DNA from: Candidatus Diapherotrites archaeon LH_S9
GTDB taxonomy: Archaea > B1Sed10-29 > WALL01 > JAGXON01
Assembly (NCBI GenBank): GCA_023659865.1
Contig: JAGXON010000003.1
Span: forward strand, 11,896 to 75,895
Length of the DNA: 64,000 nucleotides
Direction: 5' to 3'
The notes beneath the pieces are model-generated. The model ran no database searches. It was not told where the DNA came from and saw nothing but the letters and a program-made list of their open reading frames with translations. Below, piece by piece: positions 20,892-51,464 of the stretch. Both the position numbers and the translations under genes were made by a program. Position 1 is the first letter of the stretch, and each line of letters starts with the position of its first letter.

Positions 20892-21361
20892 ATCGAGCTT
20901 GGAACAGCCGAACCAATAACATAAGTTACTCCAATAACTGCTGTAGTTATCGCTAAATGCTCTAAAATAACTTTATAAGTTCCCATTTTTTCTCGGACAC
21001 CTATAAAGTAACTTAAAATAATTATCAGCATGAAACCCCAAATTAAATTTATCAGGATAGCGCTATTAAGGTCGATCATAAAAATCGGGATCAAGAAACT
21101 GAAACCTACTCCTATCTTGGCTGCGAAAGTGGCTGCAGTCGATTCCCAAATTTGTTTCTGAGTGTTCTCTAACCCGGCTTCTTCAGAGATATGCATCGCA
21201 ACCGAGTCAGATAACGCGTCTGAAAAAGCTATCAACAGTATTCCAACGCCTACAACCATTTTTGAGTGAGTGCTTGCTTCCAGACCAATTATCATTCCTA
21301 AAGTGGTTATAACTGCAGTCGTTATCCCGAAGCTTACGCCTTTTACAAAACTTTTCCTCAT
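20888..21361 (-). CDS. VIT1/CCC1-like membrane transporter
   Basis: GVSFGITTAVITTLG, SDALSDSVAMHISEE and multiple TMs. Confidence 0.75.
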   Translation of the reverse strand: MRKSFVKGVSFGITTAVITTLGMIIGLEASTHSKMVVGVGILLIAFSDALSDSVAMHISEEAGLENTQKQIWESTAATFAAKIGVGFSFLIPIFMIDLNSAILINLIWGFMLIIILSYFIGVREKMGTYKVILEHLAITTAVIGVTYVIGSAVPSSI

Positions 21362-22272
21362 TTTTTTCCTCTTATCATGTTCTTCAAGTCGTTCACGGTC
21401 AAGTTCTTCTCTCTTTCTTTTTCTTTAACCACGTAGTACTTTCCGAATTCCTCTATCACTTTATGGTACTCTTTTGGTTCTTTTTCGAGCTCTAGTTCGC
21501 CCCTGCTTATTTTTTCAAGTATTTCTCCTTCTTCGTTAAGTTTTTTCTCCAGCTTTTTAATCTCTTTTTCTCTTAGTTTAACTCTTTTCTTCAGCCTTTT
21601 TATCTCTTTCTTCTTTTTCTTAACTACCTTGCTCTTGGTTTTCTGCTCAGGCTCTTTTTCCTCTAGCTCTCTGTTCTTCTTCTTCAGCTTATCAACGTAA
21701 TGCTCTAAATCGCTTACCTTCTTCTCCAGCCTTTTTTTCTCTTCTCTAAGTCTTTTCTCTATCTCGCTTGGCTTCCTAACAGGTTTTTGTTCCTCTTTCT
21801 TCTTTTCTTCTTTTCTTTTTGGCTTGGAAGCTTCTTCAATAGCTTCACTGAGTTTCACGTCCTTGAACGCTGAGCTCCAGACCTTTTCCTTGTTTTTCTC
21901 AAAGAGTTTTTTTGCTTTCCTCAGCTTTGATTCGAATGCATTGAAGCCGTTCACGGCCGCTGCCAGTGCGTCTCTCTCGTGATCGTTCTCGAAACTGTGT
22001 TCTTCGGCTAGCTTCTTTTTTTTCTTGGTGCTCAGGTCTTCTTCTGGAACAAAAACTTCAGCGTTAAAACTGCTACCGATTTTTTTCACGGTTTCTGGAC
22101 AAGGAGACACATCACAGCAAACTAGGACTGGCGAACCTTCTTCAGTTATCCAGTGCACCATGTCTCTAGGGCCAGATCCTCTTTTGCTCCTGCAGAAAGC
22201 TAGTTCCTTCTTCAGATTTAGGGCGCAGACTGCGCTCGTGGTTCCAGGATCGATTCCAATAACTAGCTTCAG
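21358..22272 (-). CDS. DUF460-family protein (RNase H-like N-terminus plus coiled coil), apparent CTG start
   Basis: Frame extends 37 codons upstream of the track start: (L)KLVIGIDPGTTSAVCALN; NDHERDALAAA motif; AGGAGG SD precedes TAA-CTG. Confidence 0.85.
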   Translation of the reverse strand: MKLVIGIDPGTTSAVCALNLKKELAFCRSKRGSGPRDMVHWITEEGSPVLVCCDVSPCPETVKKIGSSFNAEVFVPEEDLSTKKKKKLAEEHSFENDHERDALAAAVNGFNAFESKLRKAKKLFEKNKEKVWSSAFKDVKLSEAIEEASKPKRKEEKKKEEQKPVRKPSEIEKRLREEKKRLEKKVSDLEHYVDKLKKKNRELEEKEPEQKTKSKVVKKKKKEIKRLKKRVKLREKEIKKLEKKLNEEGEILEKISRGELELEKEPKEYHKVIEEFGKYYVVKEKEREKNLTVNDLKNMIRGKK

Positions 22273-22283
22273 TTAAACGCCTC

Positions 22284-23282
22284 CTAAACTCCTTTCCTGT
22301 ATTTTTTAGTGCTTTTCTTGCCTTTGGTTTCCAGCAAGCCTAGATCAGCTAAATGACTTAGGTAATTCCTGAAACTGCGTTCACCAATAGCATTCTCTTG
22401 CTTTTCTCTGTACTTATCGTACATTTCAGGTCCTTTCATCCATTTATCGTTTATCATCTCGTAAATAGTTTTCTCATGATCGTTCAACTGCTTCAAGGCC
22501 TCGCTCTTGCGCAGGTACTTCATTTTCTTGAATTCTTGCTTGACGATATCTTCAGTTACTTTTTCTTTTTCTCTTTGCTCGGATTCCATGCCAGATCTGC
22601 GTAAAGCTTCAATAGCTATCCTAGCGTCTCCTTTACTCAACCGACTTATCAACCGTAAAGCTGGATTGGGCGCGGTCCCGCTCACAAAAGCGTATTTTGT
22701 TCTTTCCTTGATTATATCAAAGATCTCGTCTTTGGAGTACGCCGGGAGATTGATTTCTTCTGGACTCAGCGAGCTTTTCGTCCGCGAGTCCAGACCAGCT
22801 AACGCAAATTTCTTGTTCGAGATCACGACTATACCGGTGTCGGCGCGGCTCAAGCTGTAAAGTAGCTTCTTGTTTTCTAGCGTGTCCACTTCATCCAGGG
22901 CCACGACCACGTTTCTTTCCTCTGCTTCTTCTTCAAAGTAGTTAAGAGCTTTTGAAGTAGAGGTTCCGGAGCCGAGATAGACGTCCAGCCCTTTCAACAG
23001 CGTTGCGAGTGTTGAGTGCATCGTGCTTTCTTTCCAGCAGTTAACAAAAGAAGTTTTCACGTCCGGAGACTGTTCTTCCAGTTTTTCTAGCGTCCATTTC
23101 ACGAGCATGGTTTTTCCTGTACCGCAAGGCCCGTGCAAGAAAACGTTTCTTGGTTTCCGGCCGTCTAGAGCTGGTTTTAGGCAGTTACCGAGTTCTTGTT
23201 TCTGTCCTTCTCTGTGCAAGATTTTTTCGGGAACGAACGCTTGCCTTAAAGGTCTTTCGTTTTTGATCATGAAAAGCCTCAC
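22284..23282 (-). CDS. cdc6: Orc1/Cdc6 replication initiator family protein
   Basis: ILHREGQ, GPCGTGKT, VNCW, LDEVD, GDARIAI and C-terminal wHTH. Confidence 0.93.
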   Translation of the reverse strand: MRLFMIKNERPLRQAFVPEKILHREGQKQELGNCLKPALDGRKPRNVFLHGPCGTGKTMLVKWTLEKLEEQSPDVKTSFVNCWKESTMHSTLATLLKGLDVYLGSGTSTSKALNYFEEEAEERNVVVALDEVDTLENKKLLYSLSRADTGIVVISNKKFALAGLDSRTKSSLSPEEINLPAYSKDEIFDIIKERTKYAFVSGTAPNPALRLISRLSKGDARIAIEALRRSGMESEQREKEKVTEDIVKQEFKKMKYLRKSEALKQLNDHEKTIYEMINDKWMKGPEMYDKYREKQENAIGERSFRNYLSHLADLGLLETKGKKSTKKYRKGV

Positions 23283-49435: not shown

Positions 49436-50056
49436 ATGGGAAAAAAAAGAGATCAGACAACGCTCGCTGCAACCGTTATAGCTTTAGTTATTGTCTCAGC
49501 ATTTTTTGGGTTCTTCATATCCAAAGAAATTACTGAACCAGTTAAACTCGGACTTAAAGTAAAACCAAACGTCACTCTCGTCTGGGGTCCTATAACCGAA
49601 GGAAACTACGACGGAACATCAAGCACTGCTCCTGTAGCAGCAGCCTACGGAGGAAACAGAATGAGTGTTAGATTGCTTAATCCGGAGACCCGCTTCAATT
49701 CAGTTGAAGACTTCCTCAACGACAGTGCGAAAACAGATGAAATAAACGGTTATGATGCTCTTTATTACTACAAGACCAACGAACTCCTGCTGGAAAGCAA
49801 AGAAATTAAAGGAATAGCGAATAGTTTAGGATTAGAAAGCGCGAGAGAACTGCAAGACCTTTCGGATAATCCTGAATTTGTTTCAAAAGTGAAAAAAGAG
49901 TGCGGTGGAGTTCTGTCAACAGAAGACAGAAAAAAACTTTCACAGGAAACTGAAGGAAGTTTCAGCAAATTCTCGGAAACTCAAAAAGAAGGCACTGAAA
50001 CTTTCGGAGAATACGTGCTCGAAGAAGTAGACAAATTAGTGGAAACGCACTGCTGA
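49436..50056 (+). CDS. Membrane-anchored hypothetical protein
   Basis: N-terminal TM, soluble C-terminal domain. Confidence 0.65.
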   Translation: MGKKRDQTTLAATVIALVIVSAFFGFFISKEITEPVKLGLKVKPNVTLVWGPITEGNYDGTSSTAPVAAAYGGNRMSVRLLNPETRFNSVEDFLNDSAKTDEINGYDALYYYKTNELLLESKEIKGIANSLGLESARELQDLSDNPEFVSKVKKECGGVLSTEDRKKLSQETEGSFSKFSETQKEGTETFGEYVLEEVDKLVETHC

Positions 50057-50069
50057 AAGTGGTGGTAAT

Positions 50070-51464
50070 ATAAAACTCGACAAAACCGATTTCTCGAACT
50101 GGTACAATACCATACTTGAAAAAGCCGATGTATTAGACAAACGCTACAACCTTAAAGGAACCTACGCCATCAAACCATTCGGACTCAAGCTAGTGAACCA
50201 AGTAATGGACAGAATAAGAAACGGCTTGACGGAAACAGGTCACGAAGAAGCCAGGTTTCCTCTACTTATTCCAGAAGACCAACTCGAAAAAGAATCTCAG
50301 CACGTAGCAGGATTCGAATCAGAGGTTTTCTGGGTCACCAAAGGCGGAACCAAAAAGCTAGAGAAAGAACTAGCCCTAAGGCCAACCAGTGAAACCGTTG
50401 TTTACCCGATGGCTGCGCTATGGATTAGAAGTCACACTGATTTACCTATGAAGCTGTTCCAAGTCGTGAACACTTTCAGGTACGAGACCAAGCACACTAA
50501 GCCGCTGATCCGGGACAGGGAGATACCGTTCTTTAAAGAAGCTCACTGCTTCCACGAAGACTGGGAAGACGCAGAAAAAGAAATGAGTTTAATCAAAGAC
50601 CTTTACTCCGACGTCATGAACGACATCGGCGTTCCAGTGCTCGTTAGTAAAAGACCTGAATGGGACAAGTTTCCAGGAGCTGAGTACACGGTCTCGTTTG
50701 ACACAATAATGCCTGACGGCAAAACACTTCAAATAGCTACTTCACACAACCTCGGGAAAACGTTTTCAGACGTTTTCGACATAGAGTTTGAGAACGAGGA
50801 CGGAGAGCACGACAAACCAATCATCACCTGCCACGGCATATCCGAAAGAATTATAGCAGCGCTCATAAGCGTTCACGGAGACGAGAAAGGATTGGTACTA
50901 CCACCTGAATTTGCACCTGTACAAGTAGCCGTAGTCCCAGTCGTTTTCAAAGGAAAAGAAGAAAAAACCATGGAAAAAGCAAGAGAAGTAGCGAATTCAC
51001 TTGACTGTAGAACTGAACTCGATGATCGAGATGTCAGCCCCGGCGAAAAATATTATTACTGGGAGATGAAAGGAGTACCGATACGCATAGAAATTGGTCC
51101 CAAAGAGGTCAAGGAAGACAAAGCACTTATAGTTCGCAGAGAAACTAGAGAAAAAGAAACAGTTCCCTTAAAGCAACTGGAAGAACGGGTTAACTCCGTC
51201 TTCCGAGAAATCACAGAGAACTTGCAGTCTAAAGCACAGAAGAAAATGCAGGAAATGATTGTTGAAACTGAGTCCATTGAAGAAGTTGGTTCAGAACAGA
51301 AGGTTTACAAGGTAAAAGTCTGCGGTAACGAGGAGTGTGGTAAAAAACTTGAGAAAGGCACTTTCGAGTTCCGTGGGACACTGCTAGGTGAGGAACCGGA
51401 AGGAAAATGCATTTCTTGCGGTAAAGAAGCAGAACACTATGGCATAGTGAGCAAAGCCTATTAA
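50070..51464 (+). CDS. proS: Prolyl-tRNA synthetase (archaeal type), apparent ATA start
   Basis: LRPTSET, FRYETK and QIATSHNLG; conserved N-terminus FSNWY..DKRYNLKG lies upstream of the track start, with no in-frame ATG/GTG/TTG after TAG 50037-50039. Confidence 0.95.
   Translation: MKLDKTDFSNWYNTILEKADVLDKRYNLKGTYAIKPFGLKLVNQVMDRIRNGLTETGHEEARFPLLIPEDQLEKESQHVAGFESEVFWVTKGGTKKLEKELALRPTSETVVYPMAALWIRSHTDLPMKLFQVVNTFRYETKHTKPLIRDREIPFFKEAHCFHEDWEDAEKEMSLIKDLYSDVMNDIGVPVLVSKRPEWDKFPGAEYTVSFDTIMPDGKTLQIATSHNLGKTFSDVFDIEFENEDGEHDKPIITCHGISERIIAALISVHGDEKGLVLPPEFAPVQVAVVPVVFKGKEEKTMEKAREVANSLDCRTELDDRDVSPGEKYYYWEMKGVPIRIEIGPKEVKEDKALIVRRETREKETVPLKQLEERVNSVFREITENLQSKAQKKMQEMIVETESIEEVGSEQKVYKVKVCGNEECGKKLEKGTFEFRGTLLGEEPEGKCISCGKEAEHYGIVSKAY

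Follow-up and report, generated by a model that had tools for sequence, protein, structure and literature searches.

Bacterial genes with an AUU or AUA start codon behind a Shine-Dalgarno (SD) sequence are known from Escherichia coli, where infC and pcnB belong to this type, and from the Deinococcus-Thermus group, where infC starts at ATA; the weak infC codon is conserved and serves autoregulation of the initiation factor IF3. Close or overlapping gene pairs with ATGA or GTGA junctions, on the other hand, are coupled by termination and reinitiation in bacteria as well as in archaea. Here, the 5' end of proS, the prolyl-tRNA synthetase (ProRS) gene of Candidatus Diapherotrites archaeon LH_S9, was analyzed. 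The archaeon is a tiny, uncultured member of the DPANN, and its proS lies within a stretch of 64,000 nucleotides (the window, G000:C32:11896-75895, to which all plain positions refer) of an assembly, in the following G000, that comprises 671 kb in 38 contigs at 42% G+C and is rated 66% complete. Judging from comparative sequence evidence, initiation at the ATA codon at position 50070, behind the SD motif GGTGGT, is the best-supported reading of proS, with a probability of about 0.72. For archaea, a ribosome profiling study of Haloferax volcanii suggested alternative start sites of which about 30% were near-cognate codons; these were set aside as possible false positives, with further analysis restricted to AUG, GUG and UUG (PMC7261190). 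Those peaks are mostly not the main starts of conserved genes, whereas in proS the ATA is the sole possible start of an essential gene and the evidence is comparative. With the infC/pcnB type, proS shares a near-cognate codon at the presumed true start, an SD motif at functional spacing, the failure of gene finders to recognize the start and, as proposed below, the reading of a near-cognate codon by the initiator tRNA. In contrast to infC, the proS ATA is confined to one lineage with no regulatory loop evident, and initiation in an archaeon involves aIF1, aIF1A and aIF2 instead of the bacterial factors IF1-3.

The proS frame on the forward strand is uninterrupted for 474 codons, being open from position 50040, and is closed upstream by two in-frame TAG stops (50028-50030 and 50037-50039). 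Between the second TAG and GTG 50193, no ATG, GTG or TTG is present in this frame, and the first canonical codons, GTG 50193 and ATG 50205 (50193..50207), are not preceded by an SD motif. The conserved ProRS N-terminus, MKLDKTDFSNWYNTILEKADVLDKRYNLKG..., is encoded upstream of GTG 50193 in 41 codons (50070..50192, translated as IKLDKTDFSNWYNTILEKADVLDKRYNLKGTYAIKPFGLKL) that include the FSNWY...RYNLKG block and the tryptic peptide TDFSNWYNTILEK, with a canonical start absent in front. Four codons between 50040 and 50192 differ from ATG by one base (ATA 50070, ATA 50112, ATC 50169 and AAG 50187), and only ATA 50070 (50070..50072) precedes the conserved Phe codon of FSNWY at 50091. This ATA follows the SD-like GGTGGT (50061..50066), with GGTG (50061-50064) placed 5 nt before it. 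Hence, the observation on the proS 5' end from which the original prediction had started, an N-terminus encoded ahead of any canonical codon and an ATA behind GGTGGT, is confirmed by the sequence. The canonical-start-free stretch of 51 codons exceeds the 95th percentile of 574 gene-like open reading frames (ORFs), which is 37 codons; such a leader is by itself unremarkable, and it is homology that is decisive.

When started at ATA, the coding sequence runs from 50070 to 51464 and encodes 464 aa followed by a TAA stop (51462-51464). The public gene call begins at ATG 50205 and gives a 419-aa protein, which consequently misses 45 conserved N-terminal residues. Otherwise, proS is an intact, single-copy gene for an archaeal-type ProRS: no second ProRS gene was found in the assembly, the search of its own genome giving one full-length match, and the proS product matches the Pfam families PF00587 (tRNA-synt_2b) and PF03129 (HGTP_anticodon) with E-values of 3e-30 and 3e-20, respectively. 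The ProRS-C_1 domain (PF09180) scores 29.9 bits, slightly below the cut-off of 31.5 bits, and is listed in the precomputed annotation. The ATA-started protein aligns over residues 6-464 with the Methanothermobacter thermautotrophicus enzyme (PDB 1nj1, E-value 1e-156). Compared with archaeal-type class IIa ProRS such as 1nj1 and the Methanocaldococcus jannaschii enzyme 1nj8, domain order and the C-terminal zinc-binding domain are the same, the protein itself is ordinary, and the start codon is the sole difference. The nearest ProRS relative is 59-60% identical, the public protein forms a singleton cluster on one contig, and the closest named source of homologues among the matches listed is 'Candidatus Diapherotrites'.

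In all 27 relatives with a readable proS N-terminus, as well as in the closest database homologues among the matches listed, the conserved block stands behind a canonical start (ATG in 26 of the 27, GTG in one), which is located 2-29 residues before FSxWY. The ATA at 50070 shares its alignment column with Met1 of the closest homologues, for example MEFPKENFSEWY and METSRADFSDWY, and the Phe of FSxWY follows 7 codons after ATA, precisely as in these two sequences. Alignments with solved ProRS chains from three domains of life (1nj1, 1nj8, Thermus thermophilus 1h4q and the human and Plasmodium enzymes) set in at residue 6-7 when the protein is read from ATA. The same boundary emerges from codon usage, for which a log-odds coding score was trained on the 252 longest ORFs: the segment 50070-50192 reaches 0.60 per codon, compared to 0.58 at the 75th percentile of real coding windows, while 50040-50069 scores only -0.14 per codon, so that the coding signal turns on at ATA.

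The surroundings of the codon would suit a start site. The 16S rRNA 3' end of G000 (contig C38) reads ...GGTTAGATCACCTCCT, and GGTGGT can pair with this end (...GAUCACCUCCU). Ahead of 204 confident ATG starts, GGTG is most frequently spaced by 5 nt, which the motif at 50061-50064 matches exactly. Moreover, the codon following ATA is AAA (Lys), the commonest second codon with 16% of confident starts, with Lys codons making up 22% in total. A position-weight model of start context ranks ATA 50070 close to the middle of the true starts (56th percentile); GTG 50193 and ATG 50205 reach only the 11th-12th percentile and look like decoys. RNA structure around the proS start was indistinguishable from that of shuffled sequence (z = -0.44).

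The window and the remaining assembly hold further genes of this kind. The 574 gene-like ORFs were screened for leaders that look coding but lack a canonical start, and the best candidates were carried on to Pfam and then to relatives; about four genes (approximately 0.7%) stood out with apparent near-cognate starts, namely proS, an Elp3 homologue, a DUF460 gene and a pilin-like gene. The CTG at 22272, which had been named in the original prediction as another non-canonical start, is borne out as the start of the DUF460 gene (21358..22285, minus strand): the codon (22272-22270) directly follows an in-frame TAA, with AGGAGG (22285-22280) 7 nt and the TAG stop of the upstream gene 11 nt upstream. 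In one relative, TTG occupies the Leu-Lys-Leu position homologous to this start. The Elp3 homologue (radical SAM and GNAT domains; G000:C35:4566-6083, minus strand) starts with CTG at C35:6077 (L035:1710-1712), two codons past an in-frame TGA, itself part of the SD sequence AAGGTGAT, with GGTGAT 5 nt upstream. Here, the match to Pfam ELP3_N sets in at profile position 3, and ATG is found at the homologous place in all 15 relatives examined. The pilin-like small ORF (G000:C22:78267, plus strand) probably starts at ATC, judging from G000 alone, as its class III signal peptide MKLTNQKG/FIAIPLL... can be encoded from this codon only; AAAGGAG lies 9 nt and the upstream stop 15 nt upstream. Other long leaders, those of SHMT, PheRS-beta, EF1A, ArgRS, the T2SSE ATPase, L11, FtsY and HMG-CoA reductase, proved to have ordinary canonical starts.

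Weak initiation codons also recur at the DUF460 gene of relatives. An SD-preceded ATA is found in four genomes from three genera of one family (G003, G006, G008 and G010) and additionally in G022 from another family (loci L071, L073, L076, L078 and L082). The start is TTG in six genomes (G009, G013, G015, G017, G021 and G023), ATG in G001, G002 and G025, and probably ATC in G018. In G006, the ATA start and the upstream stop form a true ATAA overlap, corresponding to the classic ATGA junction. Since the ATA-started genes come from independent assemblies, this pattern is not a sequencing error, and ATA is a real and recurrent start in this lineage; on DUF460, for which weak starts are found throughout the class, it is conserved, with ATA in three genera of one family.

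All four near-cognate starts of G000 have the same arrangement, a same-strand upstream gene ending 11-15 nt before the start with the SD motif in between. Among confident ATG starts, the share with an upstream stop between -10 and +20 nt is 31%, so that four of four would be expected at 0.31^4, i.e., about 0.009. In the case of proS, the upstream gene (49436..50056, plus strand; 206 aa with an N-terminal membrane anchor, coding score 0.43 per codon) ends with TGA at 50054-50056, leaving a gap of 13 nt to ATA. From this shared geometry of stop, SD and start, we propose SD-directed initiation helped by reinitiation. In the G000 lineage, an ancestral proS ATG would have mutated to ATA, with translation still starting there. 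GGTG(GT), 5 nt upstream, would pair with the 16S rRNA 3' end and thereby position the small ribosomal subunit, which probably is already bound to the mRNA after termination at the upstream TGA (translational coupling). The initiator Met-tRNA (anticodon CAU) would then read AUA despite a mismatch in the third position of the codon and insert methionine, resulting in the predicted N-terminus Met-Lys-Leu-Asp-Lys-Thr-Asp-Phe-Ser-Asn-Trp-Tyr, and ProRS output is expected to be below that from ATG. An unusual initiator tRNA is ruled out, as the gene on contig C1 shows a normal CAU anticodon, the A1:U72 pair and an anticodon stem with three G-C pairs. With established coupling systems, proS shares an upstream same-strand stop 13 nt before the start and an SD motif between the two; it differs from them in having a gap instead of an overlap, in that dependence on upstream translation is only proposed here, and in that ATA starts of relatives also occur without a close upstream gene, the DUF460 start of G003 being 265 nt away from the nearest one.

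Several observations weigh against initiation at ATA. About 8% of internal codons match its context score, the model being moderately discriminating, hence start context alone proves nothing. The SD motif is imperfect, being GGTGGT instead of GGAGGT or GGTGAT. Across the genome, 5' leaders show no enrichment of SD motifs ahead of near-cognate codons (3 of 110 for ATA and 5 of 57 for CTG at a background of 3.4%). The proS ATA is not conserved in any of the 27 readable relatives; G000 is without a same-family genome and no ProRS homologue exceeds 60% identity. In the literature searched, neither experimental work on AUA starts in archaea nor experimental evidence of archaeal near-cognate initiation beyond the unvalidated peaks of PMC7261190 was found. 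Finally, the proS sequence is known from one assembly, and an exact-pattern scan of metagenome contigs for an independent copy of the locus gave 0 matches.

The last point bears on the alternative that the true codon is ATG and the ATA results from an error in consensus or assembly, or from a minor allele chosen by the assembler. A single G-to-A change would be enough to turn the ATG of 26 of the 27 relatives, all of which are canonical, into the codon seen here. Substitution errors in a short-read consensus are very rare, though, and at least two other genes of G000 have equally well-supported near-cognate starts, which as errors would imply a rate of about 2 per kb; the conserved genes examined are free of internal stops, with Pfam matches from or near the first profile position. 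In addition, the DUF460 ATA starts stem from independent assemblies of relatives. Given the rarity of such errors, the implausible rate implied and the occurrence of the same phenomenon in relatives, we consider a consensus error rather unlikely, and the ATA is presumably carried by the population DNA.

A second alternative takes proS as one symptom of a globally relaxed start-codon check caused by an altered or missing aIF1 or aIF2. This has in its favor that the 66%-complete genome contains four near-cognate starts, two of them in genes for which all relatives examined are canonical, and that a SUI1/aIF1 gene was not found in the G000 assembly. Yet aIF1 is present in all 12 relatives of the same order, and the gene that heads the conserved aIF1 neighborhood in these relatives (G000:C29:178-885) is placed at the very end of contig C29, while aIF1 itself and about 10 genes located after it in relatives are all missing from the assembly. 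As this neighborhood runs off the contig end, aIF1 is most likely unassembled and not lost. Likewise, the lack of SD enrichment before near-cognate codons and the modest share of about 0.7% of genes do not indicate a relaxed start regime, which leaves this explanation improbable. Accordingly, of the interpretation given in the original prediction, initiation at ATA behind an SD motif is retained, but neither of the two causes offered for it: relaxed start-codon selection is not seen in the genome-wide counts, and translational control of proS finds no support from conservation, as all relatives are canonical. For the same reason the ATA is better seen as a lineage-specific substitution than as conserved control of the infC kind. 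In one same-class relative, the proofreader of start codons may itself be initiated at a weak codon. The aIF1 gene of G022 (L085, G022:C19, minus strand, around locus position 550) is without a canonical start before its zinc-knuckle motif; at the place of the ATG of other genomes (MSSICAKCGLP), it has CTG, spaced by 7 nt from the preceding GAGAGGTG.

Third, the proS start might have been lost, leaving either a fresh pseudogene or a truncated protein made solely from GTG 50193 or ATG 50205. The 419-aa form is indeed the public call, and gene loss does occur in DPANN genomes. However, the intact 474-codon frame with three Pfam domains is the sole ProRS gene found, and the 41-45 residues that would be missing can be aligned to the N-terminus of each solved ProRS chain that was matched. 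As the two downstream codons are without SD motif and in decoy-like context, and the codon-usage signal upstream of them is strong, loss of the start is very improbable.

Reassignment of AUA to methionine, as in mitochondrial codes, which would make ATA a cognate start, has nothing but the start codon itself in its favor and is refuted, since homologues have I (417), L (183) or V (120) and hardly ever M (5) opposite the 13 ATA codons within proS, showing that AUA means Ile inside genes. ATA is the commonest Ile codon in G000 (29 per 1000), and a tRNA-Ile(UAU) gene is present. The latter had also been adduced in the original prediction, and its existence is plausible, as window positions 35138-35337 fold as tRNA-Ile with anticodon UAU once introns of 112 and 13 nt are removed, while an Rfam search with the unspliced locus gave no match owing to these introns; its supposed relevance to initiation was not upheld, with AUA being read as Ile and the initiator tRNA carrying a normal CAU. 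Read-through or recoding of TAG that would extend proS upstream is implausible, as two TAGs are followed by the noncoding-like stretch scoring -0.14 per codon, and a frameshift fusion with the upstream ORF is rejected because all 119 homologues listed are 453-496 aa long, with no such fusion known.

Two further loci of the assembly were noticed in passing. At C3:982 and C3:1821 (minus strand), two ORFs have a common upstream block, CTGAGGACCGTGCC-CTG-GTTCACAGTCAA, as a repeated 5' region. At G000:C33:54319-60254 (minus strand; L033:2720-2860), two very long ORFs on the same strand, of 1127 and 872 codons, share 66 nt close to a GGTTTTTTGAGG run, a canonical start being absent in the first 390 codons of the second; the pair probably represents one giant surface protein gene that is broken by, or uses, a frameshift.

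As to annotation, the truncation of ProRS is not an isolated case: the same error affects Elp3, DUF460 and the pilin-like gene in this genome as well as DUF460 in several relatives, and gene finders restricted to ATG, GTG and TTG would systematically truncate such genes in DPANN archaea. The proS change resembles a lineage-specific weakening, tolerated in a reduced genome, of the start of an essential gene, and not a regulatory device. The case is one more piece of comparative evidence for AUA, CUG or AUC serving as archaeal start codons behind an SD sequence, typically soon after an upstream stop, a use of near-cognate starts that had been hinted at but not pursued in the H. volcanii study (PMC7261190). 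Considering DUF460 with ATA across three genera, aIF1 apparently with CTG in one relative and even the essential proS on ATA, it might tentatively be supposed, although we regard this as the less likely case, that ribosomes of the Iainarchaeia (DPANN) physiologically accept AUA, CUG and AUC when an SD sequence, often together with a ribosome that has just terminated, places the codon in the P site, and that selection makes use of this. If true, the archaeal start-codon set would be wider than the textbook AUG, GUG and UUG, and weak starts would constitute a conserved dial of gene expression, possibly including a feedback loop at aIF1 analogous to that of bacterial infC.

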